IMG/VR virus record: IMGVR_UViG_3300044477_000051
Location: 1-39,739 of that record
DNA from: a virus
Lineage: Duplodnaviria > Caudoviricetes
Strand: one strand, 5' to 3'
Length of the DNA stretch: 39,739 bases
The position numbers and the translations under genes were made by a program. Under the pieces are notes generated by a model. That model was not told the origin of the DNA. It saw only the letters and a list, made by a program, of their open reading frames with translations, and searched no databases. This document shows, in pieces, positions 135-32,480 of this stretch (within the stretch, counting starts at the first letter, position 1; the number at the start of each line of letters is the position of its first letter).

Positions 135-502
135 CTAGTTTGTGATTTATTTTTGAAGTTTTGCAGGATTATTTTAGGGGACTAACGAAGTTAGGTGGGA
201 CTAACTAAAGGGCTGGTTGGTCTGCGCTTCGCTTGACGGCCCTCCCCCAAAGGCTCTATATGTTTAGGGTGAACTAACTGAATGAGGCCAGGCTAATTTT
301 TTTAGGGGGTACCCGGTTTCGGACGCGGGGGTAGGGATATGTATATAGATGCACCTCACACAACTCCAGCCATTTTTGAAAAAGGAAGTTGCTACTATAA
401 ACCTATAGTCTCCTAAAGAATATGTTGTATATGCTGATATCACATGTTTGGAAAACCTTACGGTTTTCCGGCCGCACGAGTACATGCAAGGAAAAAATTT
501 CC

Positions 503-531
503 TTGACAAAACCCCGGACGGCCACTATACT
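503..531 (+). promoter_or_regulatory. Rightward sigma70-type promoter
   Basis: TTGACA (503-508), 17 bp spacer, TATACT (526-531), with an A-tract upstream (UP-like). Confidence 0.8.
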
Positions 532-577
532 AAAGGCCATTCGATCATTTACCATAAGACCTCAAATGGACGAGGTC

Positions 578-623
578 GACCCAGAGACAGCTACTCTAAT
601 AGCTCCTCTGGGTTTCTTTTTTT
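578..623 (+). terminator. Intrinsic terminator or attenuator in the leader of the 503 promoter
   Basis: ACCCAGAG..AGCTA-loop-TAGCT.CTCTGGGT followed by TTCTTTTTTT; preceded by the hairpin GACCTC/GAGGTC (558-577). Confidence 0.6.
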
Positions 624-638
624 CTAAAGGAGAATCAG

Positions 639-815
639 ATGACTGATGAATTATTTGTTTCTAGGATAAAAGCTCTTACTGGCCGCACACTAAACATCAT
701 TGAAAATATGACTGAAGAAGATTATAAAACAATAATGAACAAACAGAAAACCTGTTTAGACCTATCCCTTGCTATACTTGAGTGGGCTTTAGAACAAGCC
801 TCAAATGACAAATAA
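639..815 (+). CDS. Hypothetical 58-aa protein (MTDELFVSRIKALTGRT...), below the ORF-track cutoff
   Basis: AAAGGAGA RBS at 626-633, ATG 639, TAA 813-815, followed by a terminator hairpin. Confidence 0.65.
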   Translation: MTDELFVSRIKALTGRTLNIIENMTEEDYKTIMNKQKTCLDLSLAILEWALEQASNDK

Positions 816-843
816 AAAAGCAAGCCCGAAAGCTTGCTTAAAT
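816..843. terminator. Probable bidirectional terminator between convergent small genes
   Basis: AAGCAAGC-CCGAAA-GCTTGCTT hairpin with an A-run on the left (a U-tract on the minus strand). Confidence 0.65.
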
Positions 844-873
844 TATCCCACCCACCACCGCTAGAACCTCAAC

Positions 874-1068
874 TTAAACTATCTTCTTCTGACTTGTCAA
901 TCCTTCAATAATCACCAGATCACTACATGCGGCCCTCTGCATAAAGTACCGCATCTCCTCCGGGACAATAGCAGCGTGACCCATTCCGGCCAGAGTCCGA
1001 TTAACATTGAAGCAGATGAATCGCTTCTGGCACTCTTTGCAAGTAAATAGCTTTCTCTGATCTTCCAT
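874..1068 (-). CDS. Small Cys-containing (CxxC, possible Zn-binding) hypothetical protein
   Basis: GGAGGAG RBS at 1078-1084 (minus strand), CKEC motif, downstream of the consensus promoter at 1218-1246. Confidence 0.65.
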   Translation of the reverse strand: MEDQRKLFTCKECQKRFICFNVNRTLAGMGHAAIVPEEMRYFMQRAACSDLVIIEGLTSQKKIV

Positions 1069-1217
1069 AAAGATTAGCTCCTCCCGTTGTGCTGATTGGC
1101 TTCGCGGCCAGTGCTCTGTATTATTGTTTTGTTTAGAAAAGAAGATAGGTCGGCTTTGTTATGTACGATTTGCTTCACCTATCAAGTGTAGTCCCTCCCC
1201 CAAGAGGTCTGATAGGA

Positions 1218-1246
1218 ATTATAGCACGGCCTGGAGATTGTGTCAA
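1218..1246 (-). promoter_or_regulatory. Perfect-consensus leftward promoter with extended -10
   Basis: Minus strand TTGACA-17bp-TATAAT with TGn immediately before the -10. Confidence 0.85.
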
Positions 1247-1259
1247 CTAAAATAGTTGA

Positions 1260-1288
1260 TTGACAATGCAAATATTTAAGGTTAATGT
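1260..1288 (+). promoter_or_regulatory. Rightward promoter of the packaging operon
   Basis: TTGACA (1260-1265), 17 bp spacer, TAATGT (1283-1288); back-to-back with the leftward promoter, separated by TCAACTA-AAA-TAGTTGA. Confidence 0.6.
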
Positions 1289-1367
1289 CATTTAATAAAA
1301 GATGGGAAAGAGAGAAGGGTGTTTAACACTTGTCTTCCCTCTCCCCCGTTTGATAGGTAGATACATT

Positions 1368-3730: not shown

Positions 3731-3740
3731 GAGGCTCCTT
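3698..3740 (-). terminator. Intrinsic terminator for groES
   Basis: AAGGAGCC (3708-3715) / GGCTCCTT (3733-3740) stem; on the minus strand followed by TTCTTCTCTT. Confidence 0.55.
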
Positions 3741-3748
3741 AGCTGTGT

Positions 3749-4036
3749 TTAGGCGGGAAAGCTGATTACAATGTCTTTGAAGTCGATGATACGGTATTCT
3801 ACTTTGTCAATAACCGTTCTTCTTCCTTTGAAGGGTTCCCAGATTATCTCTTGGCCTTCAAAAAAGTCCCGTTCTTCCCCCTTTTCGCCTGATCCCATGT
3901 ACATAATTGTGCCATGATTGTCGTCAAGTTTAGTTGTACTTGGCAGAATTAGGCCACCTGCGGTGGTTTCATCCTTGATCGGATAAGGTTTTACAAGAAG
4001 TTTTGTTCCGTGAACGGTAAATGGTGCATTTTTCAT
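3749..4036 (-). CDS. groES: GroES/Cpn10 co-chaperonin (95 aa)
   Basis: GTKLLVKP..DETTAGGLILP (mobile loop)..GTIMYMGSG..EYRIIDFKDIV matches the Cpn10 pattern; GGAGGA RBS at 4041-4046 supports the ATG at 4036. Confidence 0.9.
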   Translation of the reverse strand: MKNAPFTVHGTKLLVKPYPIKDETTAGGLILPSTTKLDDNHGTIMYMGSGEKGEERDFFEGQEIIWEPFKGRRTVIDKVEYRIIDFKDIVISFPA

Positions 4037-4052
4037 TGGTTCCTCCAAAGAG

Positions 4053-4081: not shown

Positions 4082-4088
4082 GTTTTGT

Positions 4089-4379: not shown

Positions 4380-4424
4380 CCTAATGGGGGAGGGAAAGAC
4401 TCCCTGTGAGTGATGATTTTTGTG

Positions 4425-4512: not shown

Positions 4513-6579
4513 ATGTCTGACTATTTACCTGATGTAGAGAATGTGGAGGCGGGAGCAGCTGTTCCTGTTATTGATATTGAGGATAAGGTTAATATTGAGG
4601 GGTTGAAGAATCTAATTAAAGATTATTTGACCAATTATGAAGAAAAGTTTGAAAGACGCAATGAACTTATAAGCCAGATTGTAAGACAGAGGGAAGTTGA
4701 GCCAGATAATCAGGGTAGGGATTCTGATGGACGGTTGAAGACGGTTCCTCCGGTAACGGCAAGTGCGGTTAATATTGCGTACGGACATGTTAAGAATTAT
4801 TTAAATCAGTTAAATCCATTTTTTGATACACAGGCGCTGGGGCAGAGTCCCGATAGTAAGAAGAAAGCCAAGATTGCTCAGAAGTATTTGAATTTGTTAG
4901 CGGATTCAAGGACGGATTTGAATATTCGGGTGAAGAACAATACGATTGTTTATGATTGTGTGAGCCTTGGTGGGAAGTTTGTTAAGGTTATTTGGGATGA
5001 TGATGTTTATCGAACGAAAGTTAAGATGGAAGATGGGACTGTTGTCGATCAGGCGTATAGGAGGCATTTTGGGCCGTCCATTATTCCTGTTGATACCCGA
5101 AATGTTATTTATCCGAATGGGTATGAAAGTATTACGGAGATGCCGTTCATTGCTGTGAAGACGGTTATTAGTAAGATAGAGTATAAGAGACTTTGGATTG
5201 ACGGTACAATTAAGAATTATGTGTTTGACGGTGAAGAAGGTGAAATAGTTTATGAGGAACCGGCTGATGCTGAGGTGAGCCAAGAGATTCAGGACGAGAA
5301 TGAGAGACGCGGGTATAAGTTTAATACTGAGGATATGACAGACTTTTGGGAGTTTTATCTGTACTACGAACTTCTTGATGAGAAGGGTGAGCCGACTCAG
5401 ATGATTGGAGACTATATTGTTTGGTATGCCGCTGGTGATGATAAGATTTTGAGGGTCTCCCCGAATACTCTTGGGGAGAGGCCGATTACTTGTATTCCTT
5501 ATATTATTATGCCGGGGAATGTAGATGGAAAGGGTGTTGGGCATTATACGCTTGGTGCTCAGAATGATGCGGAGTTCTGGAGCAATGTAAGACAGCAGAA
5601 TGCGCGGTTTGCTGTTAATAAGAGCTTTTGGGCTAAGTTGGGAAGCGTTAATCCGAAGGTTAAAGTACAGCCGGGTGGGGTTTATTACTACAATAGTCAG
5701 GATGAAGTGCCGCAAGAGATGAGAGTTAGCGAGGTTCCTGGTAGTTCTTTTGAACAAGAGAGGATGAGTAGGCAAGATGCTCAGATGGGATCTGGAATTA
5801 GCTCTATTATGGGTGGTATGGCTGATCCGACACTCAAGAGTCGGGATACGTTTAGCGGGCAGAACTTCAGGTTTAAGCAGAGCATGGGTGTTATTGGAGC
5901 ACTCATTGAGAATATGGAGAATGGGTTTGCCAGTGTAGCAAATATTGTTTGGAAGTGGTTGGTACTAAAGAATAAGGAAGTTATTGATTATGAGATTCAG
6001 GTTGGCAGGCTTGATCCGGCTGATATAGCGGAGTTGCAAGCTGCGTTGACGATGAAGGTTGAAGATGTACCTGTTACGTTGCAGTTTTCTATTAAGACTA
6101 CAAATCTCGATCAGACTCAAGAGGCCGCTAGGCAGAATTATCTGCTTGTGAGCCAGTTGAATGAGCAATATTTTCAGAGTTTAACACCGGTGTTTCAGGC
6201 GTTGAGTAATCCGCAGATTCAGCAAATGCCTGAGTTGATGATGTTCTTTACGCAGATGATTGTCAGCAAGACGAAGTTGCAGCAACAGATTCTTGATGGT
6301 CTTGATTTGAGTGATACTGAGTTGTTGTTGCCGAATGTTGAAAGACAGGTGGCTCAGATTCAAATGGCAAATGAGCAGATTAGTCAGATGATTAGTCAGC
6401 TTAAAAATAGTAGTGGAGGAGGAGGAGTTAATGGAACAGGAACAGTTGAGGGACAATCCCAACCAACAGCCGTACCAGGCCCCGTTGCCACCGGTAATTC
6501 CGGAGCTGCAGGGGGTATGCCCGGAGGACAGGGAGGAGTTCCGCAAATGCAAGGACAGCCTGGGGTTCAAGGTATTTAG
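4513..6579 (+). CDS. Portal protein (podovirus/P22-like head-tail connector)
   Basis: 688 aa after TerL; 'DCVSLGGKFVKVIWD', 'RPITCIPYIIMPGNVDGKGVG' and 'SGISSIMGG..TFSG' patterns; Q/G-rich C-terminal tail. Confidence 0.85.
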   Translation: MSDYLPDVENVEAGAAVPVIDIEDKVNIEGLKNLIKDYLTNYEEKFERRNELISQIVRQREVEPDNQGRDSDGRLKTVPPVTASAVNIAYGHVKNYLNQLNPFFDTQALGQSPDSKKKAKIAQKYLNLLADSRTDLNIRVKNNTIVYDCVSLGGKFVKVIWDDDVYRTKVKMEDGTVVDQAYRRHFGPSIIPVDTRNVIYPNGYESITEMPFIAVKTVISKIEYKRLWIDGTIKNYVFDGEEGEIVYEEPADAEVSQEIQDENERRGYKFNTEDMTDFWEFYLYYELLDEKGEPTQMIGDYIVWYAAGDDKILRVSPNTLGERPITCIPYIIMPGNVDGKGVGHYTLGAQNDAEFWSNVRQQNARFAVNKSFWAKLGSVNPKVKVQPGGVYYYNSQDEVPQEMRVSEVPGSSFEQERMSRQDAQMGSGISSIMGGMADPTLKSRDTFSGQNFRFKQSMGVIGALIENMENGFASVANIVWKWLVLKNKEVIDYEIQVGRLDPADIAELQAALTMKVEDVPVTLQFSIKTTNLDQTQEAARQNYLLVSQLNEQYFQSLTPVFQALSNPQIQQMPELMMFFTQMIVSKTKLQQQILDGLDLSDTELLLPNVERQVAQIQMANEQISQMISQLKNSSGGGGVNGTGTVEGQSQPTAVPGPVATGNSGAAGGMPGGQGGVPQMQGQPGVQGI

Positions 6580-9948: not shown

Positions 9949-9977
9949 ATGCTGGTCGAAAGGCCAGCATGCTTTTC
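9949..9977 (+). terminator. Hairpin after the capsid genes
   Basis: ATGCTGGTC-GAAA-GGCCAGCAT then GCTTTT (weak U-tract). Confidence 0.55.
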
Positions 9978-9995
9978 CCTCCCCCAGAGGTACTT

Positions 9996-10346
9996 ATGTT
10001 TGAACAAGAACTTATTGCAGAGAACGCGGTACTTCAATCAGAAACGCTTGTAGATGGACTTGTTACAAAGACTTATAGTTGTTTCTCAACAGATGGGGTT
10101 TTGACGAGGACGGTAGAAATTAGTAATCCGAATGGATCGTGGATTTGGAAGGATACTTCTCCGTACGCGACATCAACAACAAATTATGGAAGTTGGACGC
10201 TTATGGAAAAATACCCTGAGAAAGGTGAGAAAGGAAGGCTCTGCCCTATTTGTGGAGAAACTTTTCCTGAAAGCCGATTTGTTACTGTGAAGGGAAGACG
10301 ACTTTGTATTCCGAATAAGTGCTTTACGGAGGTTAGACAGCTATGA
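9996..10346 (+). CDS. Hypothetical protein with C-terminal Zn-finger-like motif
   Basis: GAGG RBS, ATG 9996; CPIC...C....C; ATGA overlap with the next gene. Confidence 0.65.
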   Translation: MFEQELIAENAVLQSETLVDGLVTKTYSCFSTDGVLTRTVEISNPNGSWIWKDTSPYATSTTNYGSWTLMEKYPEKGEKGRLCPICGETFPESRFVTVKGRRLCIPNKCFTEVRQL

Positions 10347-13724: not shown

Positions 13725-14311
13725 TGGGTGCCAAATATTGGAATGACATAAACCGATATTCTCAGCAAAACAACAATAGTTCGGAGAAGATGGCGGGTCA
13801 CTTGGAAACTTGTGGCCCGACTTCTGCCATAAACTGTTATGATGCACTTCACTTGGTTCCTGCTAAACCTGCAACCTTTGGGGGAGGGGAGATGCAGCCG
13901 GAAGATGCCCTGGCAAACGTTATGAACAACACTCCAAAGTATTCGGCTGAACTTGAGAAGATTAGGCAGGGTATCTGGAAGACTCTCCCAGTAAACGAAG
14001 TACCGCAGTATTATCCGTACTTTGCAAAGCTCTGTCTGAAAGCCAGATGTGAAATGATGTGGGACGGAAACCTCTTCAACTACAAGTCTCACCTAGACAA
14101 AGGCTATGCTCTGATGGTCTGTCTAAAGAAGCCGGGTCATTACGTCTGCCTGAAGAATTATGACAATGCTGGTCGGTTCTTCTATGCGAATGATCCGTAC
14201 AATGGAAGAGATGGAATTGACGGTTTCAATAGACATTTTAGTTTTGACGAGATTGAATCTAACACAGAGAGCTGGTATCTCTTGTGGTATCCAGAGGAAC
14301 ACGATTATTAA
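13724..14311 (+). CDS. C39-like cysteine peptidase, candidate endolysin
   Basis: YSQQNN..TCGPTSA (Cys), GHYV (His), ANDPY (Asp) papain-like triad. Confidence 0.75.
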   Translation: MGAKYWNDINRYSQQNNNSSEKMAGHLETCGPTSAINCYDALHLVPAKPATFGGGEMQPEDALANVMNNTPKYSAELEKIRQGIWKTLPVNEVPQYYPYFAKLCLKARCEMMWDGNLFNYKSHLDKGYALMVCLKKPGHYVCLKNYDNAGRFFYANDPYNGRDGIDGFNRHFSFDEIESNTESWYLLWYPEEHDY

Positions 14312-14321
14312 GGGGAACTAG

Positions 14322-20477: not shown

Positions 20478-23400
20478 ATGAACCCGGAACTTAAAGCTTA
20501 TCTTGATTGGGAAAATACAGACGACTTCAGAAAGCTATCCTACGCCGAACAACTACAAACACGAGATACATTCTTTAAAGAATACGCTGCAAAAAACAAC
20601 CTGCTTGGGGGAGGGTATAGCGAAGACCAGCTCTCCACCTTCTACAACCAGCTCGTTATGAGACCCGGCAAGAATCAAAATCCGGCTTTCGATGATGCCC
20701 AAAACCAATTAATGAATAACTTCGTAAATCCAAACATCGCAGCCCTTCAAGGCACAATAAAGAATACGGCCGAAAACGATCCTGAAATTGCAAAGATGGA
20801 AGAAAGATTCCGAATAGACTTGGGCCAAATGTACCCTGATCTATCTCCTGAAGAAATCGAACTTAAAGTAAAAGACAACATGGCCCTTTATCAAGAGCAA
20901 GGGGCCGATAGCATAATAAAAAATCTATCATCTCTTGCAACATTATCTGGCCAATACTCCGGCCTTGGTGTTATGCAAAAACTCCAGAACATGCTTCCAA
21001 TAGACGATACAATTCTAACTCCTCTTGTAGGCTCGGGTAAAAACCAAGACTACATCTACTCCACCGACTTTAAGAAAACCCTCGACTACATCGACCAAAT
21101 GGTAGCGAACGAAAAGAGTAAAGGCCGAACATTTTACTCTGCTGATATGTCCGACTACTACTCTCTTTCAAAAACCGTAAACCAAGTCCTCATGTCTGTT
21201 GTAACTTCCCCCGGAATGAGTGCTCTTGAAGAAGGCTCTCGCTCCCTCATCCTAAACTCACTCGGTAGTATGGCCCTAAACCCTGTTGCTGATAAAGCCC
21301 TTGTTCAGTTCCTTCCAAATGTAATTCGCGCTTCAGCAGAAGCCGCAGGATGGACAGCTTCCGACTACATGGAAAAAATTACTTCAACTCCAAATTTCGA
21401 CATCTCAAGCATTCTTGCAGATGCTCCAACAATAGCAAAGACCTTTGGCGAATACGCCCTCATGGATTACATAATTGGTGGCGTAACCGGCACCATAGCT
21501 CCAGCAGCCCTTGCCTCAGGTAAAACCGCAGCTCTCGGCTTAGTCGGAAAGAACGTCTACGACAACAAAGCCATGCAAACTCTAATGAGTGCGACTGACA
21601 TCAACGATCTCATCACCAAGTTCGACTCATTCTCTCCCGAACTTAAAGCAACACTCCCTGCTTACCAACAGCACTACATGCAATCAATCAAAGAAATAAA
21701 TGCCATTAAGAAACTTCCTCCTGAAGTAATCAAGGCAGACCCCTTATCAGAAATACGCCTTGCCACTGACCTTCAAGGTTTCTCAAACACAATCGAAAAC
21801 GGAACATTCCAACTTCGAGCTAAAGCCTCACCCGATCAATACGCTCGTCAAATAGACTCCTTACCAGGCCTCTATCAAGCTATGGCCGACCATCAAGGCG
21901 CAATCCTCTCTAACATTGAAAAGAGCTACGATGCCCAGATAAAGACAGTACCAAAGCCTCTTGTAGATGCTCCTGAAGTTGGCTTCAAATCCCTTCAAGA
22001 ATCCTACCCCTCAATCACAACCATCAAAGGAATGCAGGATGCAGCAGACCAACTCTTCGACATCACCAAGAAAGAAATCTCAAGTTCTCCTTTAACAACC
22101 TACAAGAACTTACCTTCAATTTCAGGCCGTCCAATCGTCTACGGAGACGAACTCCCCATCCTTGAACAAGTAGCAAAATCAAACGACTACAAACTATACC
22201 GTGTTGATGCCCTCCCCCAAAAGGGTCAGGATTTCTCCTACGGAACAACAGCCGCTCAAATAAACCCGGACGGCAAATATCTGTTTCCTGCAAAGTCAAC
22301 AGCTCCTGTCGAACTCTACGAGCAAACAAAACAATTCTTTACTGACATGCAGCAAAAAGGACTTATCGCCCCCACCTCAATCGACGAGCTATCAAAAGCT
22401 GACCTACTTCGCAAAGGCTTTGACTCCATTGACATGGGAAACGGCAACATAGAAATACTCCTAGCAAACAAAATTAAACGAGTGACAACCCTCAAGCAAT
22501 CGGTAAAAGAAGTCGAGTCCTTTCAGAACTTTTCAAACCTCGCTAAAGACCCCACTTCAAAACTCCCCGATTTCAACGCAACAGTTAAACGCACCTTCAG
22601 CGAAACCTTCAAACCTGAACAACTCACAAAGTCCGATACAGCCCTTATGAACGCTCTATCAGCTATCGCTAGAGAACCAAACCAGCCAGTCCTAAAGACC
22701 CTAACAGAGTCCTACCTCAAGAATAAAACAGGAGCTACCTTCAACGTCAAGCTCACATCCTCTGGCAACAAATACGGCTTCAATCTCATGTTCAAAGACG
22801 GCAACAACATTGAACTCCGGCTTCCCGCAGCCACCTCCTCCATCGAGGGAAAAGTAAACTTTGTCAAATCCTACTTCAATCAACTCAAGAAAGTCCTCGA
22901 TGACACTGGAGTACCCAACAAAATTGACACCTCAGTCAACATCGAACACCTCATGCTCAATGTAGAAAAAGGCTTTAACATTCCTCTCGGCCAAAAGACC
23001 AAAGCCTCCTGGTTTAGAACCGCCTTTAAACAAGTCTACGGTACAGAGCCGATCATCGAAAAAGGAGCCGTTCAAGTAATGGCCGCAGGAGAAAAGCGAG
23101 TCTTTACTTCAGTCGACGATGCCATCTCTTGGTTCGGCAAAAACTCTTTTTCACCTGAACAACTCCAGACTGCCCTCCGTGATGAAGGCTTCCGAGTTTA
23201 CAGAGCAAATTCAAACTGGGTAGTCCAATCAGTCGGTACTTCAAAAACTAAAGTAGCCAGTGGCCCCTCACTCTCAGACATCGCCAATCAAATGGGTTGG
23301 GAGCCTACCAAACTCCCTGCTTCCCTCGCTCCCCGTGAAATGTACATCTTTGCAGACGACGCCATCGAAGTCCAAGTAACGGACAAAGCTATGTACGGAA

Positions 23401-26039
23401 CCCTCCAAGAAACTCAACAGTTCTTCAATCAGTTCCAAGACTACACAAAAATCGGCGCTGCTAAAGAAGCAGTTATCACACCAACAGGAAGAATCTATGG
23501 CTTCTCAAACACTCGATTTACCGTTCAGTCCGACATACTTGCCCATGAGTTCAGCGTTGCCTCCAAAACTGAAGCAGAAGAACTACTTCGAGCTATTGAA
23601 ACCCAGAGCGTTAAAGACGCCACTCTTCAATCTATCTCCCGCGATAAAGGCATTTTTATCTGGAGAAATGGCAACGAATATCATATTAACGATGGAACCG
23701 GAAACATCAAAACATTCAATAACCAGCAAACTCTCTTTGACCATATTCGAGAAAACCCTACTCCTACCGGAGCACCTGATCTCTTCGATACTCGAACAAT
23801 GCAAATCCTAGACCCAATCTTCTCAGCCAAAGGTATCACCCACGACTGGGTTCAAAAACAATCTCTCCTCACAATTCCCGAATCCACATTCGAGAACACA
23901 ATCGACCAACTCGGCGGCTATGCAGCAATCTCCCGTATTGCAGTCCCCCGTACAAATTGGCTCGAAGATGCCTTCAAAACAATCAATCTACCTGAAGGCG
24001 CTCAAATAATCGAACGCATTAAAGCAGGTAAGGATGCAGCCGCAGCCTACTCAGGCCCCATTCAACACCAAATCGACGCAGTATTCAAGAAAGTCTCAAA
24101 GGAACGTCAAGAAGGACTCTACTACTACATCACAGGTGAAATCCCTGAACCCGGCAAATCCTACTTAAAGAAAGCAACACCAGAGGAACTCCAGAAAATA
24201 ATAACTGATTACAAACTTACACCGGAAGACATCAACACTCGCATCCCCGCCATTAAAGCAATCCTTGGTAACGATCCACAATCCGGTCTCTTCGCACTCA
24301 CCGGCAACGACACCTCAAAGTTTCTAACCGACTATCTTCCCCGTCTAAAAGACAAAGGCTATCGTGACGGTTGGGATCAATTCTCAGATCTCACACCAGA
24401 AGACATCCTCAGTACAACAAACTTCGCCTCTTCAATGGACGCAGCTCAGGTAAAAGCTTTCTTCAAAAATTCCCGTACAAGCGAACTTGCTACAATATCC
24501 ACAAGCACAAACCTCTACCACGTCCTCACCTACTATAACAAAAAAACCGCAGATATGTTCTTCCTTAACGGCCCACTCGAAGAACTAAACACCCTCCAAA
24601 AGCGTATCGCTGAATCTCAAACAATCCGAGTCGGCGCAGACGGCAAACCTAAAGGCTTTGCTCCCGGTATGCTCAACACCAAACTAAACGAGTTTAAAGA
24701 ACTCATCACTGGAATGAATAGCAATGGAGAAGAAGTTATCAGTAAAGGAGTTCACGACCTATTCTTCTCAATTACAAAGAACGAAAAACTCTCCCGTGCA
24801 GTAGCAGAAAACTTTTTACCAAAAATCTATGAAGCATCTTACTTCACTTCAATGGCCCTCAAACCCTCTCTAGTAATTCGTAACACACTCCAACCCCTTC
24901 AGACCGCAACTCCATTTCTCGGCTTAGATGCAATCACACACGGCTACAAAACAGTCCTCTCAAAAAACTGTGACGACATCTTTGATGAAATGAGAAAAGC
25001 TGCCGTAATCGCAGACCGTGCGCAATACCTCGATAACTTCGATACTCCCGTCTCAAGCGCCTACCGCAAAGTAGTTGACTTCGGTATGCAGGGCTTCAAG
25101 AACTCAGACGACATATCTCGCGCAGTAACATGGATTGCAGCAAAGAAGAAATTCTCTGATGGCATTGAACGCCTCGGCAAAATGCCAAAGACAGCAGCCG
25201 ATTGGATTCCTTTCTTCCAATACACCAACTCAAACATGCTCTCCCAAGGCTTTGCTCAACGCCAGCTAAAGCTCCTTCAATCCGGCGACATCAAATCAGC
25301 TCAACTTCTCTACGCTCGTGAGATGGTAAACACAACAATGTTTCGCTACGCTAACTGGAACTCACCCTTCGGTAGAACCTGGATAGGCAAGCTCTTCGGA
25401 CAATTCGGCTCCTACTCAGCTTCCTACATCCAAATGGTTAAGCAAACCCTCGGTGGCTTTAACCCCACCAAGTACGCTCACCTAGACCCAGTAACCCGCA
25501 AACTATTTGCCCCTACAATGGCCCAATCACTTACGGCCATAACTTCTTTGGCAGCAAACAGCATGGCCCTTATGTCAACCTTCGAGTTCCTACGAACTCG
25601 TGGAGACAACTTCAACCCAATCTCTCCAATGTACTTTAACGGCGGGGTAATGTATAAATTCGCAGTCAATGCTCTCGGCCTTGCCTCTCAAGTAGGCGGC
25701 TTTAATGCACCACTCTTCAACCAACAACTATCTCAGCTTACAAAAGACATCTCACCCTATCAAGCCAAAGCCTATGCGAACTCCTACAAATTAAAGTGGG
25801 GAATGTATAACTATCCGAACCTCTACCCTGGTTCAGCTCAAGTGCGCTCGATAACTAAGTTTGCTGATGGAATAGCTTCAGGAGACTTTTCCGGGGCGCT
25901 TTTATCCCTAAGTGGATTCTCTGTGCTTCCAGCCGATCAATTTGGACGGTTAAATATACCTTTTCTCCCGTCAGACGATCCGCTTGTAAACTCAGTTCTG
26001 CCGGAGCATCTGAAGACCACTTTAGACTCTTCAGATTAA
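20478..26039 (+). CDS. Large ejection/internal virion protein (~1850 aa)
   Basis: GGAGG RBS before ATG 20478; C-terminal 'SLVIRNTLQ..D..SRA..W...TMFRY....P....GKLFGQF.SY' block typical of large podovirus ejection proteins; no catalytic motif recognised. Confidence 0.7.
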   Translation: MNPELKAYLDWENTDDFRKLSYAEQLQTRDTFFKEYAAKNNLLGGGYSEDQLSTFYNQLVMRPGKNQNPAFDDAQNQLMNNFVNPNIAALQGTIKNTAENDPEIAKMEERFRIDLGQMYPDLSPEEIELKVKDNMALYQEQGADSIIKNLSSLATLSGQYSGLGVMQKLQNMLPIDDTILTPLVGSGKNQDYIYSTDFKKTLDYIDQMVANEKSKGRTFYSADMSDYYSLSKTVNQVLMSVVTSPGMSALEEGSRSLILNSLGSMALNPVADKALVQFLPNVIRASAEAAGWTASDYMEKITSTPNFDISSILADAPTIAKTFGEYALMDYIIGGVTGTIAPAALASGKTAALGLVGKNVYDNKAMQTLMSATDINDLITKFDSFSPELKATLPAYQQHYMQSIKEINAIKKLPPEVIKADPLSEIRLATDLQGFSNTIENGTFQLRAKASPDQYARQIDSLPGLYQAMADHQGAILSNIEKSYDAQIKTVPKPLVDAPEVGFKSLQESYPSITTIKGMQDAADQLFDITKKEISSSPLTTYKNLPSISGRPIVYGDELPILEQVAKSNDYKLYRVDALPQKGQDFSYGTTAAQINPDGKYLFPAKSTAPVELYEQTKQFFTDMQQKGLIAPTSIDELSKADLLRKGFDSIDMGNGNIEILLANKIKRVTTLKQSVKEVESFQNFSNLAKDPTSKLPDFNATVKRTFSETFKPEQLTKSDTALMNALSAIAREPNQPVLKTLTESYLKNKTGATFNVKLTSSGNKYGFNLMFKDGNNIELRLPAATSSIEGKVNFVKSYFNQLKKVLDDTGVPNKIDTSVNIEHLMLNVEKGFNIPLGQKTKASWFRTAFKQVYGTEPIIEKGAVQVMAAGEKRVFTSVDDAISWFGKNSFSPEQLQTALRDEGFRVYRANSNWVVQSVGTSKTKVASGPSLSDIANQMGWEPTKLPASLAPREMYIFADDAIEVQVTDKAMYGTLQETQQFFNQFQDYTKIGAAKEAVITPTGRIYGFSNTRFTVQSDILAHEFSVASKTEAEELLRAIETQSVKDATLQSISRDKGIFIWRNGNEYHINDGTGNIKTFNNQQTLFDHIRENPTPTGAPDLFDTRTMQILDPIFSAKGITHDWVQKQSLLTIPESTFENTIDQLGGYAAISRIAVPRTNWLEDAFKTINLPEGAQIIERIKAGKDAAAAYSGPIQHQIDAVFKKVSKERQEGLYYYITGEIPEPGKSYLKKATPEELQKIITDYKLTPEDINTRIPAIKAILGNDPQSGLFALTGNDTSKFLTDYLPRLKDKGYRDGWDQFSDLTPEDILSTTNFASSMDAAQVKAFFKNSRTSELATISTSTNLYHVLTYYNKKTADMFFLNGPLEELNTLQKRIAESQTIRVGADGKPKGFAPGMLNTKLNEFKELITGMNSNGEEVISKGVHDLFFSITKNEKLSRAVAENFLPKIYEASYFTSMALKPSLVIRNTLQPLQTATPFLGLDAITHGYKTVLSKNCDDIFDEMRKAAVIADRAQYLDNFDTPVSSAYRKVVDFGMQGFKNSDDISRAVTWIAAKKKFSDGIERLGKMPKTAADWIPFFQYTNSNMLSQGFAQRQLKLLQSGDIKSAQLLYAREMVNTTMFRYANWNSPFGRTWIGKLFGQFGSYSASYIQMVKQTLGGFNPTKYAHLDPVTRKLFAPTMAQSLTAITSLAANSMALMSTFEFLRTRGDNFNPISPMYFNGGVMYKFAVNALGLASQVGGFNAPLFNQQLSQLTKDISPYQAKAYANSYKLKWGMYNYPNLYPGSAQVRSITKFADGIASGDFSGALLSLSGFSVLPADQFGRLNIPFLPSDDPLVNSVLPEHLKTTLDSSD

Positions 26040-26385
26040 GTGTAGACGAGATATGTGGTTGACCTGTTGCATCAAAGACCACATATCTCTCCTTCCAAAA
26101 ACCAATCGCCTCAAGGTATTCCTTTCCATACTCTCTCATACGATACCTCTTCTGTTTACTATTCATATTCTTTTCTAAGCAGAGCCTCATAGGGGGAGGG
26201 ACAGCCTTAGCCCTCTCCTTAATCCCCATCTCATGGCAAAAGTGTTCAATCGTCTTATGGCTACACCCCAACTTTTTAGCAACATCCTTATACTTCATCC
26301 CGGCCTTCCTCAACACACTTACCGCCTGATAAAGCAACCCAATGTTCTCCTTCTTCAGCTTATGCCACAGCCCATCATACTTCAT
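25855..26385 (-). CDS. HTH DNA-binding protein
   Basis: 'LRKAGMKYKDVAKKLGCSHKTIEH' HTH; ATG 26385 overlaps the upstream gene end; the 3' end overlaps the convergent gene. Confidence 0.65.
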   Translation of the reverse strand: MKYDGLWHKLKKENIGLLYQAVSVLRKAGMKYKDVAKKLGCSHKTIEHFCHEMGIKERAKAVPPPMRLCLEKNMNSKQKRYRMREYGKEYLEAIGFWKERYVVFDATGQPHISSTLNLKSLKWSSDAPAELSLQADRLTGEKVYLTVQIDRLEAQRIHLGIKAPRKSLLKLFHQQT

Positions 26386-27823
26386 CTTTGCCCTTCCCGC
26401 ACCAAATATACATCTCTTTCCTATTCCTACTCGGAACCTTCCTTCCCTCATTATTTAACACAATACTAATTGAACCTTCCTGCTTCAGCTGATCCAAAAT
26501 CTTATTCAACAAGTCACTCGGAATCTTCGCCTTCAACACAAGCGAATCCCTCATAATCGCCGAACACTCCTGAATAAGCGCCTTCACTTTCTGATACTCC
26601 TGCATGAACTCTTTCTTACCAATCGTATTAATCAGCCCGCCCATCTTACTATACGTCAGCTCAATCAACCGTATCGCATCTTCCAGATCCACCAGCTCAA
26701 TCCTATCCCCACTACAATACCTTTGCGCCTTAAACGCCAACGCCACCTTCAACAGAATCTTATCCATTCTACTCTTAACACCAGCCGTCTCAGGATTCTC
26801 AGCCAAATCCATCTTAAAAATCATGTACCACTCATCATACCTCTTCTGAGCTTCCTCACTCAGCGTATGTCCGCCAACACAAGTCTTGGCAATCCAACTC
26901 ATCTTCATCCCCAACTCATCAAAACTCGGCGCCCCAACAACTTCCCTCGGCATACTCATATACTTCGTATTCCTCTCCAGAAACACAAGCGTCGTGCGGC
27001 TCAAGAAACCATCCCCCAACATATTCTCTGGCAAACTAGTCCTCAACGCTATCGGAGTAGTTGCCCCTAACAAACTTGTACAAAGCTTCCTCAAATACTT
27101 CTGACCCGCACTCTTGGTCTTAAATCCCCACTCCTCATGGGTATCAAAAATATCCAAGAAAATCTCACTCATTGTCGCACTGTACGTCGCCTTGCTAAAC
27201 AGCGTACTCAATTCACTCACATACACCAGCGCCTCGCTCGTCCGATCATACGTCAATACAAAACCATCCTCCCCCAAGACGGCCACACCCCTCTTATCCT
27301 CAATCTGCACAGTATCTCCAAGTCCACTAGTACTCGGCAACAACGTATCCAGCAGCGCCTCTGGTGTCGTCCTATCCTTAACAATCTTCAAATCCTTAAC
27401 GACCCCCATATATGGATCACTCTCCTTCAGGAAATCCACCGCTCTCCTAATCACCTCATACCAAGCATCAAGACTCGCACTTTTCTTATCCCCCGCTCCA
27501 CCTACCAAACAAACATACATATTCGGAAACAGCTTATGCGGATACCATTCAATCCACGCCTCTCTCTTCAACATACTATTAATCGAAACAATGCCAGCCC
27601 AAATCAAATAAATAACTGGAGTCTCACTACCCCGCATCGCATAAACCATCTCAGTAATCAGCCCCTCATTACTTGGCAAACACTGTTCCCCAAAGTCCTT
27701 CCCCAGACTTTCCCAAAACTTATCCTTACAATCCTTCTCACTCCTCACAGAAAACGGCAAAGAGAAAGACTTGGAGGACTGCACATCACTATCATTTTTC
27801 TTGCTGCTTTTCTTAGTTGCCAT
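26375..27823 (-). CDS. DUF3987/YfjI-like AAA+ ATPase, probable replicative helicase
   Basis: CLVGGAGDKKSAS (Walker A variant), TPEAL, YVSELSTLF (Walker B), LLGATTP, GDGFLSR; adjacent to PolA. Confidence 0.8.
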   Translation of the reverse strand: MATKKSSKKNDSDVQSSKSFSLPFSVRSEKDCKDKFWESLGKDFGEQCLPSNEGLITEMVYAMRGSETPVIYLIWAGIVSINSMLKREAWIEWYPHKLFPNMYVCLVGGAGDKKSASLDAWYEVIRRAVDFLKESDPYMGVVKDLKIVKDRTTPEALLDTLLPSTSGLGDTVQIEDKRGVAVLGEDGFVLTYDRTSEALVYVSELSTLFSKATYSATMSEIFLDIFDTHEEWGFKTKSAGQKYLRKLCTSLLGATTPIALRTSLPENMLGDGFLSRTTLVFLERNTKYMSMPREVVGAPSFDELGMKMSWIAKTCVGGHTLSEEAQKRYDEWYMIFKMDLAENPETAGVKSRMDKILLKVALAFKAQRYCSGDRIELVDLEDAIRLIELTYSKMGGLINTIGKKEFMQEYQKVKALIQECSAIMRDSLVLKAKIPSDLLNKILDQLKQEGSISIVLNNEGRKVPSRNRKEMYIWCGKGKDEV

Positions 27824-27824
27824 T

Positions 27825-30413
27825 CTACACCGCCTTCACTAATCCCCAATTCCTGCCCATCTTCGCATCAGTCTTAAATACAACAACTTCATTACCAATC
27901 TTAATCGGCATCTCCATACACTCCGTAAGAACCCGATTACACTCTTCCATCTCCTCATCCTTACACATAACCATAATCGAGTCATGCACATTAAGCACCA
28001 TCTTCCAGCTATCCTTCTTCCTCTTATAAAACTCAATCAACCCATTCGCCGCAATATCCCAACTAAGACTTTGTATCTGAAAGTTCGCTGCCTCTCTCGC
28101 GATTTCATCCACATTGTTCCCATGCAGTACCCGAATCCTTCCTACCGAGTTCCTTATCACTCTCACATTAATCGCAGTCTGTTTAGTCTTTGCCTGCCAA
28201 GTAAAAATCTCAGGGTTAGTCTTCCTAAAGTTATCATCATAAAACTTAAACTCTTCCCAAGTAACAGGAATATCCGGCTCCTTCTCCCTCAGCTTCTTAT
28301 ACATCCCTTGCTGAGTCCCGCAATAACTCGTCCCGAATATATGGGTCTTCGCACAAACTCGATACGTTCCCCACTTTGGATGATCCTCTTTAATCCCCCA
28401 AAGCTTCGTATTCATATCATGAATATTTAGCCCTTCCTTATGCGCCTTAATCAAACTCTTACAACCACTAATATACCCAAGCAAATAAACCTCAATATTC
28501 ACATAGTCCCTTTCAACAAAACTCCACCCTTGTGGACACTCATACGCTTGCTTCACCGAAAACTTCTGCTCCTTCCTCTCTCTCGGCAGGTTCTGTACAT
28601 TCGGTTTCTGACTAGAGAGCCTTCCCGTACTTGTCCCACAACTATTAAGCTGTCCCCTGACCTTCCCATCATCCCAAATCTTAACACCCAAGAAAGTCTT
28701 ACTCATCTGCTCATTATAATTCCACTCATTAAACATCTTCAAAAACTCAACAGTGCAAAGGAGTCCAGCCTTCTCATCCTTCTTCAAAAGACTATCTCTC
28801 TTCAAACTATCAATCTCAACAACTCTATCAACACAAGCCCTCACCAGCTTATCCAACGCAACCTTATCCAAGCCACTCTGCCCGGCCTTAGTCTTCCCCG
28901 GAACAAACCCATTGGGAATCCTCATACGCTCAACCTTCATCACATCAACTCGTTCCTGAAACTCCACAGCCTGCTTGATATCCATCCTCTTCCCAGCGGC
29001 AGATCGCTCTTCAATATACTCCACTGCCTTTCTAAAATACCCAGTATCCTTTTCCCCATAGAGCAGCGCCTTAACCCAATTATCCTTCGTCCAACTAAAG
29101 AACTCAGGAACACAAGTCATTGCTCTCATCAGTTCATCAAGCTCTTTATTCCTTTCAACAATCAACTTCTTAGTGTTATTTCTACTCTTATTATTACACG
29201 GCAGCCCATTCAATCTCATCTCAACCAACACTTTAACAATGTGTCGATCCTTCTCCCAATACAAATCCCAAACACCATCTCTCTTCGCATCGGCCTTCAG
29301 CCCCTCAAGAGCCTTCATCATCCCGATAACATCCAGCCCATTATAATAAAACAGCTTATCATCATCTATCTTACTCGAATCCTTTTCATCCTCAGCTGCC
29401 GAGTCAAACTTAATATCCTTCCAGTACGGCATATCAGTATAAACACTGGCAACATAAGCCAAGCTATGATAAATCTCCGCATCAATACAGTGATGAAGCT
29501 TCATCGTATCGTGCATCAGCCCATCCTTGGCTCCTTTAAACCTCTTCCACTCCAACCAAAACGTATCAAAATAACCATTATGATAAACGCACTTCCCACT
29601 AGTCACTACTTTTTCGATTGCTTTATTAACCTTTTCAAGTCTCGATCCTTCATATAAAGCTCGTCCATTGCGTCTAAGAGGAATGACAACTGCTCGTTCT
29701 CTTGTGCCAATCCCCACGCATTTAATCTCACCTTCATTCGGCTCCAGCGCAGTCGTCTCGATATCCACGCCAATCTCTTCTTCAAGAAGCAATTCTTTAA
29801 CAGCTCTTTCGATCTCTCTAACATCTTCCAGTACCTCCACCTTCAGCTCAGGAACTGTCCACCCCTCTCTCCCGATCCTCACAATCTTCTCAACGTCATT
29901 ACCCCAGATATCAACCTCTTCAATATTTCCCTGCACCAAAAACTGCGGACTATAAGTAGCTACAACCGGCACTACCATACCGAACATCTTCTTTGGAACA
30001 ACATACCCCCTAATCTTCCTCAAACTCTCTACAATCCCAAACGCCCTCTTAGCCCTCTCCCCCAACGCCCCTACAACACCAAACCCCTTAACGCCCCTCA
30101 ACTCTTCAATAAGCCCTGGCAAGCAACACTCTTCTGCTTCATCCATCTCCAACTTACTTGCACCCTCTCCACTACAAGCAACAGCATAAGTAAAATGCAC
30201 ATCCCCCCGAACAACTCCACAATCCTTAAGCATCCTATCAACCATGTTGCCAGCCCAACCGCCGAACACTTTTCCATCGTGCACCGAATGCTTATCAGGG
30301 TTATCCCCCACAATTACCCACTTCGGCCTATCACTTAAGCACCTCCCCCTAACCATCGGATTGCCCCTTAGCGGACACTCGTCACACTTAGAAAACTGTT
30401 CTCTCTTAAACAT
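27825..30413 (-). CDS. polA: Family A DNA polymerase with N-terminal UDG family-4-like domain and 3'-5' exonuclease (SPO1-type architecture)
   Basis: CDECPL..VIVGDNP..FGGWAG (UDG-like); exonuclease DIETT, HNGYFD, YNGLD; polymerase TGRLSS..PNVQNLP, DYVNIE, RVCAKTHIFG, VHDS. Confidence 0.92.
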   Translation of the reverse strand: MFKREQFSKCDECPLRGNPMVRGRCLSDRPKWVIVGDNPDKHSVHDGKVFGGWAGNMVDRMLKDCGVVRGDVHFTYAVACSGEGASKLEMDEAEECCLPGLIEELRGVKGFGVVGALGERAKRAFGIVESLRKIRGYVVPKKMFGMVVPVVATYSPQFLVQGNIEEVDIWGNDVEKIVRIGREGWTVPELKVEVLEDVREIERAVKELLLEEEIGVDIETTALEPNEGEIKCVGIGTRERAVVIPLRRNGRALYEGSRLEKVNKAIEKVVTSGKCVYHNGYFDTFWLEWKRFKGAKDGLMHDTMKLHHCIDAEIYHSLAYVASVYTDMPYWKDIKFDSAAEDEKDSSKIDDDKLFYYNGLDVIGMMKALEGLKADAKRDGVWDLYWEKDRHIVKVLVEMRLNGLPCNNKSRNNTKKLIVERNKELDELMRAMTCVPEFFSWTKDNWVKALLYGEKDTGYFRKAVEYIEERSAAGKRMDIKQAVEFQERVDVMKVERMRIPNGFVPGKTKAGQSGLDKVALDKLVRACVDRVVEIDSLKRDSLLKKDEKAGLLCTVEFLKMFNEWNYNEQMSKTFLGVKIWDDGKVRGQLNSCGTSTGRLSSQKPNVQNLPRERKEQKFSVKQAYECPQGWSFVERDYVNIEVYLLGYISGCKSLIKAHKEGLNIHDMNTKLWGIKEDHPKWGTYRVCAKTHIFGTSYCGTQQGMYKKLREKEPDIPVTWEEFKFYDDNFRKTNPEIFTWQAKTKQTAINVRVIRNSVGRIRVLHGNNVDEIAREAANFQIQSLSWDIAANGLIEFYKRKKDSWKMVLNVHDSIMVMCKDEEMEECNRVLTECMEMPIKIGNEVVVFKTDAKMGRNWGLVKAV

Positions 30414-30422
30414 AGAATCCCC

Positions 30423-30782
30423 TTAATTAAAAATAAAATATCCCAGCAGCCCAGAAAGAATCACCACCACAATTCCATCAATCATCAACCTCTGGTTCAC
30501 ATCGTCCACAAACTCCTCTACAAACAACGCATCCGCTTCCTGTTTCTTCAGTAATATTTGGTACTGATCTTCCACATTGAGGGCACGTCTCAGATCCCCA
30601 ATCGTTATCCCGAACTCTTCCGTCACACTCACCTCGTCGTCCGGCTGCTCTTCGAGTTGATTTTCTGAAAGCGGGTCGAATGATTCTATAGAAAAGTTCA
30701 CACAGGATAATCCAGACAATAAGACCAACAATATTAAACAAAATAATTTGACACAACATAAAATCTCCCTATTGTTTTTCAC
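30423..30782 (-). CDS. Putative lipoprotein with C-terminal TM (u-spanin-like topology)
   Basis: Hydrophobic signal ending in LSGLSC, helical middle, C-terminal 'GIVVVILSGLLGYFIF'. Confidence 0.5.
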   Translation of the reverse strand: MKNNREILCCVKLFCLILLVLLSGLSCVNFSIESFDPLSENQLEEQPDDEVSVTEEFGITIGDLRRALNVEDQYQILLKKQEADALFVEEFVDDVNQRLMIDGIVVVILSGLLGYFIFN

Positions 30783-31098
30783 TTTGTTTTCCCTCCATCA
30801 AGAAATGACAAACAGCTAGCGCATTCCACGCCACATGGTACAAATGCGGCAACCCACTCTCAGGATCAACGTGCTCTCCAACCAACTCCTTCACTAAATG
30901 CCTAACAAGCGCATCTTTATACCTCTCAAATCCACCTTCAACAAACTTCCAACTATCCTTCTTATACCCCTTTCTCAAGCCATACATCGCAACTTCACCA
31001 ACCGCCTCAACTCCCTTCCAAGGAACAAGAGAAAACCGTATCTTCCCATCATCCCACTTCTCCCCAACAACCTCGCTCACAAGTTCCTCCTTAGCCAA
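30769..31098 (-). CDS. DUF5664 dATP/dGTP diphosphohydrolase-domain protein
   Basis: KWDDGKIRFSLVP..YGLRKGY..SWK..YKDALVRHL..DPESGLPHLYHVAWNAL; TTG start. Confidence 0.85.
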   Translation of the reverse strand: MAKEELVSEVVGEKWDDGKIRFSLVPWKGVEAVGEVAMYGLRKGYKKDSWKFVEGGFERYKDALVRHLVKELVGEHVDPESGLPHLYHVAWNALAVCHFLMEGKQSEKQ

Positions 31099-31259
31099 TC
31101 ATCCATCAACTCTGCCGCATCAAACAACAGCCCACTTTCAATCTCCTTATCCTCAAGTCTTCTGGCTTCCCTCAGTAACAGCTTCTTCATTGCCACCAAA
31201 TAGTCTCTATCTTTTTTTGCCAAAGACTTCTTTGAACTCTTTAACGACTTGATCGACAT
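31077..31259 (-). CDS. Small hypothetical protein (start uncertain)
   Basis: Fills the 31098-31207 gap with matching codon style. Confidence 0.35.
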   Translation of the reverse strand: MSIKSLKSSKKSLAKKDRDYLVAMKKLLLREARRLEDKEIESGLLFDAAELMDDWLRRNL

Positions 31260-31440
31260 TCTTCTTCTCCAGTTCTTCCTTCTTCCGTTTAGCCTCAGCC
31301 CTCAACTCTTCCATAACCTGTTCCTGCTCAGCCTGCAAATCCTCTTCAGTCTTCGGCCTCACATTCAACCTAAAGAACCAACAAACACCACCAAGAATAG
31401 CAATAGCCAACACCCATCCAAGTCCCTCTACAAAATCCAT
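31207..31440 (-). CDS. Small N-terminal TM plus coiled-coil protein
   Basis: GGAGG RBS; 'LGWVLAIAILGGVCWFF' then a charged helix. Confidence 0.65.
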   Translation of the reverse strand: MDFVEGLGWVLAIAILGGVCWFFRLNVRPKTEEDLQAEQEQVMEELRAEAKRKKEELEKKNVDQVVKEFKEVFGKKR

Positions 31441-31448
31441 AAGTCCTC

Positions 31449-32480
31449 CTATTCCCCAAGCTTCTTAATAATCTTTTCAATAACCTTCGGCTCATACTGC
31501 AACACACACCCGCTTGCATAATACTTAGCCACTGGCCCCTCCTCCCAATTCATCATCATTAACTTGATCCTCAACTTCTTAACTTGTGCAACACTCATTC
31601 CAAACTCATCGGCCATAACCTCATCAGTCGTATCAGCATCCACACCTTGTCTTTCCCAAACCCTCTTAATATACTGATTCAACCCAACAACATTCCCAAC
31701 TTCAACACCACTCTTTGACACAACTTGGGGGAGGGAGGCCGGAGCAACTTCAGCTACTCCTGCTTCAGCCACCACTACTGGAACCTCAGAAACACGCGGA
31801 ACCTCAGCTGTCTCTCTATTCTGTGCCCTCAACAGCGCACTAATCCCAGTCGGGGCCATTATCGCAATAAAAATAGAAAGCAGCGTGTGGAGGATAAACT
31901 TGATCCAAGATACCGGAACAACCTCACCAAACAAATCCGCATAAAAACTATAAATATTAGCAGCTTCAACATTCGTCTGATCCTTATTTAGCCCCTTAAT
32001 CTCTACCTGAATCTCTTTCTGTCTTTGTGAAATTTCGGCCTTTCGTGTTTCGGCAGTAGCCAGCGTATTCTTATATTCAAACTGATCTTCCAAACTTTTA
32101 ATACTAGTACTGATTCTCTCTTGAATCTGCGCATACTCCTTCACAAGTGAAGCCTGTTCGGCCTCCAACAGCTTCAACTCATCCGCTGACTGTGCCTGAA
32201 CGTTCTCCTTATTCTTCTCAATCAACGAGAAACTCTGACCCCCACTAGTAGCAATAACACTAAACACAATAAGAAAAACCTTCAGCACTGTCCTCTTCTG
32301 CCAACTAACGGCCATCAACAAAACCGTCAGCCCCACCCCAATCAGAATCCCAACCCACTCAACAACTCCATCAGCCCTGGAAAACCTCATAAAATAATAG
32401 TACACCTCAAGAAATCCACCAAACAAAATCAACAACACCGGCAGTAGCCAATCAAAGTTCTTCTTTAAAAAGTCTAACAT
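31449..32480 (-). CDS. Multi-TM membrane protein with coiled coil and C-terminal HTH-like motif
   Basis: Three N-terminal hydrophobic segments, ~90 aa coiled coil, a fourth TM, and 'TDEVMADEFGMSVAQVKKLR'. Confidence 0.7.
   Translation of the reverse strand: MLDFLKKNFDWLLPVLLILFGGFLEVYYYFMRFSRADGVVEWVGILIGVGLTVLLMAVSWQKRTVLKVFLIVFSVIATSGGQSFSLIEKNKENVQAQSADELKLLEAEQASLVKEYAQIQERISTSIKSLEDQFEYKNTLATAETRKAEISQRQKEIQVEIKGLNKDQTNVEAANIYSFYADLFGEVVPVSWIKFILHTLLSIFIAIMAPTGISALLRAQNRETAEVPRVSEVPVVVAEAGVAEVAPASLPQVVSKSGVEVGNVVGLNQYIKRVWERQGVDADTTDEVMADEFGMSVAQVKKLRIKLMMMNWEEGPVAKYYASGCVLQYEPKVIEKIIKKLGE

Follow-up and report, generated by a model that had tools for sequence, protein, structure and literature searches.

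Short words dispersed along phage DNA are known from several systems. In the accounts we drew on, the gp4 primase of T7 recognises the site 5'-(G/T)2GTC-3' with a 10-nt 3' flank, at about 26 active sites (PMC12839067), and mycobacteriophage stoperators are asymmetric 13-mers, more than 20 per genome, that are oriented with transcription and lie in intergenic gaps of temperate phages (PMC9283540). The known nick motifs of tf/LUZ24-like, phiKMV-like and T5 phages are, as far as these sources describe them, exact non-palindromic 9-mers conserved across genera (PMC3517423, PMC11780129). The reports available also give a precedent for a PolA-SSB primase (PMC7581432, PMC10061031, PMC10201439), and in the part of a survey used here DUF3987 helicases frequently occur alongside an AEP or DnaG primase (PMC4889955). 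Where a phage has its own full replicative polymerase and MCM-like helicase yet lacks a recognisable primase, the question arises of how the second strand starts. Here we describe a dispersed word in such a phage, the IMG/VR record IMGVR_UViG_3300044477_000051, whose entire 39,739 nucleotides form the window analysed, and different words in its relatives. The word is a selected, genome-specific DNA mark that recurs every few kilobases on each strand separately. We favour, at a probability of about 0.4, the reading that such words mark, on either strand, where synthesis is primed or re-started. The locus contributes a family in which no primase is recognisable and eight different words occur.

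A bipartite word is dispersed through the window

The 9-mer GGGGGAGGG starts on the + strand at positions 4386, 13880, 20607, 26192 and 31727 and appears as CCCTCCCCC at 240, 1193, 9977 and 22210, and six copies extend to an 11-mer (TTGGGGGAGGG at 31725). These coordinates, the near-matches at 27268 and 35669 and the peptides encoded at the copies agree with the preliminary description of this DNA; one more near-match lies at 30342. The element proved to be bipartite and longer than first noted, CCT-N(2-4)-GGGGGAGG, with nine sites: CCT stands 2-4 bases 5' of the G run in eight of the nine exact copies and at 35669, compared with one of 34 other G5 runs.

On the - strand, the word search located CCT-TT-GGGGGAGGG at 240..253, intergenic and upstream of leftward genes; CCT-CTT-GGGGGAGGG at 1193..1207, for which a promoter search found a 12/12 sigma-70 promoter, its -10 box lying about 10 bases upstream; CCT-CT-GGGGGAGGG at 9977..9990, antisense at the start of the open reading frame (ORF) 9969-10346 (MLFPPPE); and CCT-TTT-GGGGGAGGG at 22210..22224, antisense in a large putative ejection-protein gene (DALPQ). 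The + strand sites are CCT-AAT-GGGGGAGGG at 4380..4394, intergenic, before the portal gene; CCT-TT-GGGGGAGGG at 13875..13888, within a C39 peptidase gene (TFGGGE); CCT-GCTT-GGGGGAGGG at 20600..20615, near the start of a large putative ejection-protein gene (LLGGGY); CCT-CATA-GGGGGAGGG at 26185..26200, antisense in a helix-turn-helix (HTH) gene near the convergence of the two operons; and TTGGGGGAGGG at 31725..31735, lacking the CCT element and antisense in ORF 31449-32480 (SLPQ). A likely tenth site, CCT-TT-GGGGGAGGA, lies on the - strand in the exonuclease gene (35669..35681). The near-match at 27268..27277 (- strand), which has no CCT, is probably codon-driven, since the helicase of a relative likewise reads GED here.

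The number of copies was compared with several null models. Segmented, skew-aware Markov models of orders 1-4 predicted 0.27-0.57 copies of the 9-mer, higher than the 0.1 given in the preliminary description, and the observed nine (5 on +, 4 on -) remain far in excess. Five copies lie in 39 ORFs, whereas 2000 synonymous-codon shuffles of these averaged 0.375 copies and reached 3 at most. Block shuffling reached at most 3 in 300 for the nine 9-mers. Corrected over all words tested, the score of the window word was log10 -6.1. Chance, arising from G-rich skew, Shine-Dalgarno-like G runs and Gly/Pro codons, is hardly credible and largely refuted. It would draw on the low complexity and purine richness of the word in a strongly skewed genome, on a count of 10 copies of the 9-mer against 6 of a control in the genome G021, and on a coding-only 8-mer codon-shuffle screen, in which the word was not among the top five, so that the window signal counts among the weakest of the positive sequences. 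Every direct null, however, was exceeded; the CCT element is an independent feature, with nine bipartite sites against a block-shuffle maximum of 1 in 300; and in relatives the phenomenon is very strong, with corrected log10 scores of -67 to -7. Because the 8-mer screen missed it, we regard the window signal as real but modest.

Placement against the local skew had been described as often counter-skew. With the skew switches taken near 1.1 kb and 15.6 kb, this was true of five of ten sites, where the G version lies on the G-poor strand, and untrue of the other five; a 5:5 split means that the sites have no polarity. Their orientation is also independent of genes, sense and antisense copies being mixed. 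The fixed period of about 5.5 kb that had been suggested did not hold up, since three near-equal intervals are expected in 5.6% of random nine-site layouts (P 0.056); what stands is a loosely regular spacing on each strand.

Related phages carry their own words

Single-protein scans of IMG/VR yielded no close relatives of the window; the closest proteins, from other collections, have 52-63% identity. The DNA-level comparison rests on distant relatives with 24-38% protein identity and the same core gene set, drawn from INPHARED, IMG/VR, JGI and GTDB bins. A de novo word screen of 38 sequences, the window and 37 relatives, found a lineage-specific, near-invariant word of 9-14 bases in 11, with eight different words in all; since several positives had been hand-picked from an earlier screen, 11 of 38 is no estimate of prevalence. 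The genome vir526 has TCTGACGGGGGGG(T) in 19 copies on both strands, and G029, L219 and L325 share TTTGGGGGGCATTT, with 21 exact copies in G029. G022 and G023 share GACGGGGGAG (32 copies of the 9-base core and 15 copies, respectively), G024 has 18 copies of CAGGCCGGACGAGC, and G028 has seven of GGAGAGAGGAGGA; the words of G025 and L339 are GCTCGGGGGTCCT and CGTGGGGGTCCAA. A later search added a variant, TTTGGGGGGCA, in four contigs of one further lineage, and found no word in the other seven contigs examined with it. In L413, a contig of a more distant UDG-PolA phage, eight copies of CGCCGCCGGC scored under an order-2 model and not under order 3.

The screen could miss signals as weak as that of the window, and a pooled search for a common word in the motif-free relatives returned microsatellite-like or weak matches only. 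Fast trees place the positives in one clade, in a separate pair (G022 and G023) and on the long branch of the window, with negatives interleaved, which points to repeated gains or losses of words. vir526 (BK063670.1) is the best or only INPHARED match for the window terminase, polymerase and helicase (24-30% identity) and has the same gene order; it differs in its word, and the window stands on a long separate branch in all four trees. Among the IMG/VR matches listed for the extended window word (80 of 121 loci, 16 of 64 parts), no contig had dispersed copies, and the multi-copy loci were iteron-like clusters or palindromes. An incomplete literature search, made without supplements, gave no description of such both-strand words for this phage family.

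The preliminary description had drawn attention to the FtsK-orienting polar sequence (KOPS) octamer within the word. KOPS is GGGNAGGG, and its function requires polarity. The octamer is indeed present in all nine exact copies, with 12 octamers in the window overall. The polarity towards a terminus or dif site is lacking, since the window sites split 5:5 and the orientation is mixed in all relatives; without polarity the word is not KOPS. Translocase loading of the KOPS type is not supported by the relatives either, as six of the seven other words lack GGGNAGGG, the G028 word likewise being without it. More generally, the phage might have copied a host-coded signal (KOPS, an uptake sequence or a repetitive extragenic palindromic (REP) element), which is very unlikely. 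Besides the shared octamer, it could appeal to two of 301 Spirochaetota genomes in which the 11-mer is over-represented, with 46 and 17 copies where a control has 3 in each. In the richer of these, however, the copies are mostly arms of palindromic REP-like hairpins, and 46 copies in 3.1 Mb are about 10-fold sparser than six in a 40-kb phage. None of the 301 genomes reached an uptake-sequence-like density of the 11-mer, with the proviso that the true host of the window may lie elsewhere, and the word of G029 tested negative in its own bin outside the phage contig. The genome G266 (Spirochaetota; loci L457-L485) has an abundant REP-like palindrome, the right flank of which contains the window 11-mer, with 46 copies.

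Words are conserved at the base level and re-form by substitution

Conservation of the words was assessed in pairs of relatives of the window. Between vir526 and G004 (88% nucleotide identity), nine of nine aligned sites were intact, at 108 of 108 columns compared with 88% in the flanks. Two strains at 94-95% identity kept 12 of 14 and 11 of 13 sites, and three coding sites shared by G029 and L219 (55-68% protein identity) were identical at every base. Internal one-mismatch variants were almost absent. Most sites are lineage-specific and were formed in place by substitution, often with altered amino acids. An origin by insertion or as a footprint was rejected, as 44 of 55 site-versus-relative comparisons were gap-free. 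Together with the codon and block shuffles, the conservation and the substitution origin support the earlier proposal of a selected cis-signal that protein constraint does not explain. The comparisons show that a 13-14-base cis-signal can vanish and re-form at about 20 new positions, by codon overwriting, within one phage clade. Several copies are followed by ATG within a few bases (G029 14527, 20016 and 46535; L219 362; G022 36761); there the G run may also serve as a ribosome-binding site, and new words may be seeded at positions of this kind.

Words are spaced on each strand along the genome

In seven near-complete genomes there are 7-32 copies each, on both strands and along the entire length. 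Same-strand spacing was evener than random (Stouffer z -3.2) and strand alternation exceeded random (z +3.0), a signal driven largely by G022 and G023, with the window borderline and G028 non-conforming. The later-found contig L489, which was out-of-sample, showed alternation in 8 of 8 (p 0.008). Median same-strand gaps were 3.3-7.8 kb in six of the seven genomes and 12 kb in G028. In all relatives sense and antisense orientations are mixed and sites lie mostly inside genes. A per-strand lattice indifferent to genes argues for a DNA-level process acting on each strand along its length. Some opposite-strand copies are only 1 to about 130 bases apart, for example 1 base in L219, 51 in vir526, 51 in L339 and about 70 in G029. 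The L219 pair (6138-6166) stands back to back as a perfect inverted repeat exactly between convergent operons, where it could act as a bidirectional terminator.

This layout bears on the possibility that both strands are nicked at the words in a programmed manner. Such nicks would lie in packaged DNA, or would supply the 3' ends from which PolA and the helicase carry out strand-displacement synthesis without a primase, the displaced strands being annealed by Sak4. The words resemble the nick motifs of tf/LUZ24-like, phiKMV-like and T5 phages, as partly described, in being exact and non-palindromic, in their similar copy number (9-14 copies), in lying inside genes and in occurring in podoviruses with two convergent operons (PMC3517423, PMC11780129). 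Staggered alternation would leave a doubly nicked genome intact, and nicking would account for the missing primase. The motifs in these descriptions, however, all lie on one strand and unevenly, whereas the words occupy both strands about equally and evenly in all seven near-complete genomes, with some very close opposite pairs. The window itself has five copies on + and four on -, a poor fit to a virion nick signal of T5 or tf type. A pair of nicks at opposite copies 1, 51, 51 or about 70 bases apart would amount to a double-strand break, in two cases in mid-genome. The motif-bearing genomes have no nickase in common, and among 123 scanned ORFs HNH genes occurred only in G029. We consider nicking improbable.

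Slightly less probable still is a phage-private Chi or self mark, at which an exonuclease would pause at a correctly oriented word and pass the 3' end to Sak4 for recombination-driven replication, word-less host DNA being degraded. Exonuclease and Sak4 are both core genes, and for resection from either end each strand must have sites at bounded spacing. In cellular DNA, moreover, a 13-14-mer is essentially absent: all 21 copies of the G029 word in its bin are on the phage contig, with 0 in the remaining ~3.65 Mb. Against this, the words neither co-vary with nor lie close to the exonuclease (2 of 7) or Sak4 (1 of 7), both genes are also present in motif-free relatives, and second-strand priming would be left unexplained. 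Known Chi sites, at 5-8 bases, are also shorter.

Priming or re-start is the favoured function

In the priming or re-start reading, the word would be a start site for a new DNA strand when its strand is unwound or displaced in replication. The C-run strand would be the template, with an invariant copied core (a purine-first primer such as GGGGGAGGG) and, beside it, a looser 3' recognition flank (N2-4-AGG). Forks would move in both directions across the entire genome, as happens when recombination drives concatemer replication, and sites would then be needed everywhere on both strands. Candidate enzymes are the phage PolA with its SSB, in a CCPol-MP-like manner, or a host primase or RNA polymerase recruited through a phage adaptor. 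It is doubtful, though conceivable, that this is a widespread podovirus family replicating with no primase gene, and that its UDG-PolA, alone or with SSB, starts strands de novo at a private 9-14-base word which each lineage rewrites throughout its genome. If so, the private word would mean that only phage DNA is primed, and PolA as the reader would be a replicase that needs no primer and is programmed by sequence, with practical uses. The eight different words of related genomes provide exact templates and a natural specificity panel for priming, nicking and binding in vitro.

Four features fit priming: kilobase spacing, the missing primase, a core-plus-flank anatomy and a variable spacer. 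Spacing per strand is bounded at the kilobase scale over the seven genomes (z -3.2), with G028 as the exception. The earlier statement that no primase is recognisable in the window was borne out: primase families had zero matches among its 44 ORFs (PHROGs, Pfam), 16 of which were re-scanned against NCBIfam, and zero among 123 non-core ORFs selected from six motif-bearing relatives. In several words the core is invariant and the flank on one side is loose. Between CCT and the G run the spacer ranges from 2 to 4 bases, a variation that would be read more easily on single-stranded DNA than on a duplex. Priming would not be harmed by opposite-strand copies at distances of 1-127 bases.

The words are like T7 primase sites, as these are described in part (PMC12839067), in being dispersed and non-palindromic, in their similar number per genome and in having a core with a one-sided flank; five of the eight words have GTC on one strand, the T7-type triplet, in lineages that are not independent. 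They are unlike them in that the near-invariant core of 9-14 bases changes between lineages, no primase gene is recognised and the window word has no GTC. With the CCPol-MP or PolA-SSB primases of SCCmec and other mobile elements, in the accounts available (PMC7581432, PMC10061031), the window shares a PolA, an SSB-like protein, a replicative-type helicase and the lack of a separate primase. It differs in that its PolA is a full UDG-exo-pol replicase, its helicase is of the DUF3987 type, no OB-fold SSB gene lies between the PolA and helicase genes, and its sites occur throughout the genome instead of at a single preferred origin. A tRNA-primer idea was rejected on inspection, as only some words start with TGG.

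Several observations weigh against priming. The priming enzymes are candidates only, no gene is exclusive to motif-bearing or to motif-free genomes, and 27 of the 38 screened sequences have the common replication module yet no convincing, detectable word, which is odd for an essential step. The 13-14-mers are near-invariant, long for known primase sites and typical of proteins that bind double-stranded DNA. From the strong skew at four-fold degenerate sites one would expect the leading and lagging strands to be fixed, yet the word sites split 5:5 relative to the skew-defined arms, so that strictly lagging-strand-polarised priming, as had been proposed, is not supported. CCPol is truncated, whereas the window polymerase is a complete replicase. 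Spacing regularity in the window by itself is borderline (p 0.03-0.05), spacing in G028 is irregular, and a general hairpin model at the words found no support (z +2.7 to -2.2).

A tandem-HTH protein is a candidate reader

The near-invariance of the words also suits another explanation, in which they are double-stranded binding sites for a family-wide tandem-HTH protein that would cover the genome at intervals and serve its organisation, transcription modulation or recruitment of replication proteins, as an orientation-free analogue of stoperators. A model of this protein has two HTH domains and a beta domain, an architecture suited to asymmetric 13-14 bp sites (PMC9283540). A site lies in the HTH gene or within 60 bp of it in eight of nine motif-bearing sequences (2.1 expected, P 1e-4, the best of 18 genes). 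The second recognition helix is conserved in two pairs with the same word (0.75 and 0.83, with an overall identity of about 50%) and not in three different-word pairs (0.33-0.42 at 38-49% identity). The window and G024 each have a site no more than 16 bases after a strong promoter.

The relation failed out of sample, however: L488 and L489 share an 11-base core with G029 and L219, yet differ from them in the second helix and lack a site close to the gene. Likewise, vir526 and G022/G023 have like words and unlike helices. The HTH gene is also found in motif-free relatives, the window protein has lost most of its second HTH, and the gene coincides with the operon convergence point, which confounds site proximity. 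The variable CCT spacer fits poorly with reading of double-stranded DNA. Compared with stoperators as partly described, the words are similarly asymmetric and spread across the genome with a two-domain HTH protein as candidate reader, but lie sense and antisense alike and mostly inside genes, with no integrase found; in neither the window nor the relatives does orientation follow transcription. On balance we think this explanation unlikely, if deserving of weight. Fold searches with the HTH model gave no clear match (best Z 5.3). A promoter model was rejected, because sites are often antisense and intragenic and a strong promoter lies within 16 bases of a site in only two of seven genomes.

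Gene content and host of the window

The window, a whole assembly in itself, represents an uncultured, podovirus-like phage and is nearly complete. The rightward operon encodes a terminase, an SU10-type portal, a major capsid protein and putative ejection proteins. The leftward (early/replication) operon encodes, all on the - strand, a PD-(D/E)XK exonuclease (35053..36048), a Sak4-like single-strand annealing protein (33566..34342), an SSB-like protein (DUF669; 32998..33552) and a family A DNA polymerase with an N-terminal UDG domain and a 3'-5' exonuclease (27825..30413), all assigned by domain searches. The polymerase gene adjoins that of the DUF3987 helicase (26375..27823, -), and the SSB gene lies 2.6 kb upstream. 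A domain search and a model indicated an MCM-like fold for this helicase, with no primase domain seen. The predicted structure (pLDDT 84) matched MCM-containing structures in all the Foldseek rows listed (best E 8e-11, TM 0.36-0.45), which would place the gene among the DUF3987 / SF6 MCM-like helicases. The gene for the family-wide tandem-HTH and beta-domain protein, the candidate reader, is encoded after the helicase; by sequence and model the window copy (25855..26391, -) appears to be a divergent member. ORF 36914-37672 has a single homologue, at 80% identity, and no known fold was found for it or for other orphan ORFs. No integrase was found.

In most relatives a conserved gene lies directly upstream of PolA (L018, that is vir526 14195-14722; L219 496-1017); tblastn showed it to be absent from the window, and it has no Pfam match. 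By eye we take it to resemble a radical-SAM (QueE-like) protein without the cysteine motif. In one motif-free clade (L231, L235, L240, L249 and L251) the polymerase is apparently split into an N-terminal part of about 275 aa and a separate part of about 610 aa.

A sequence match revealed a perfect sigma-70-type promoter on the - strand (1218..1246; TTGACA-17-TATAAT, extended -10, 12/12), which indicates a bacterial host. A spirochaete host would be a guess, based on the binning of one relative with Leptospira and on the presence of a DUF261 gene in another relative, DUF261 being presumably linked to Borrelia. The vir526 record gives Methanomicrobiales as host; its genome has sigma-70-type promoters, GroES and a protein clustering with a DUF261 protein, and a bacterial host looks at least as likely. 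The window has a GroES-like co-chaperonin gene at 3749-4036, on the opposite strand within the packaging operon, and GroES genes are also present in vir526, G022, G023, G025 and G028.

From 1300 to 39700 the window has a very strong GC skew at four-fold degenerate sites, far exceeding that of the eight relatives compared. On the + strand it runs from +0.66 at 1 kb through zero at 10-14 kb to -0.81 at 20 kb, all inside a single operon; in the opposite operon it remains at about -0.7. This profile suggests an origin near 1 kb with unequal arms. A gene with a 9-bp tandem repeat (CSR/CSD units) occupies 39257-39739 and 1-54 and so overruns the right end, with an apparent start at position 54 on the - strand. 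A source contig extends 230 bases past position 1 at 2.5-fold depth, which makes the assembly probably a circle opened in the repeat, possibly near a terminal repeat.

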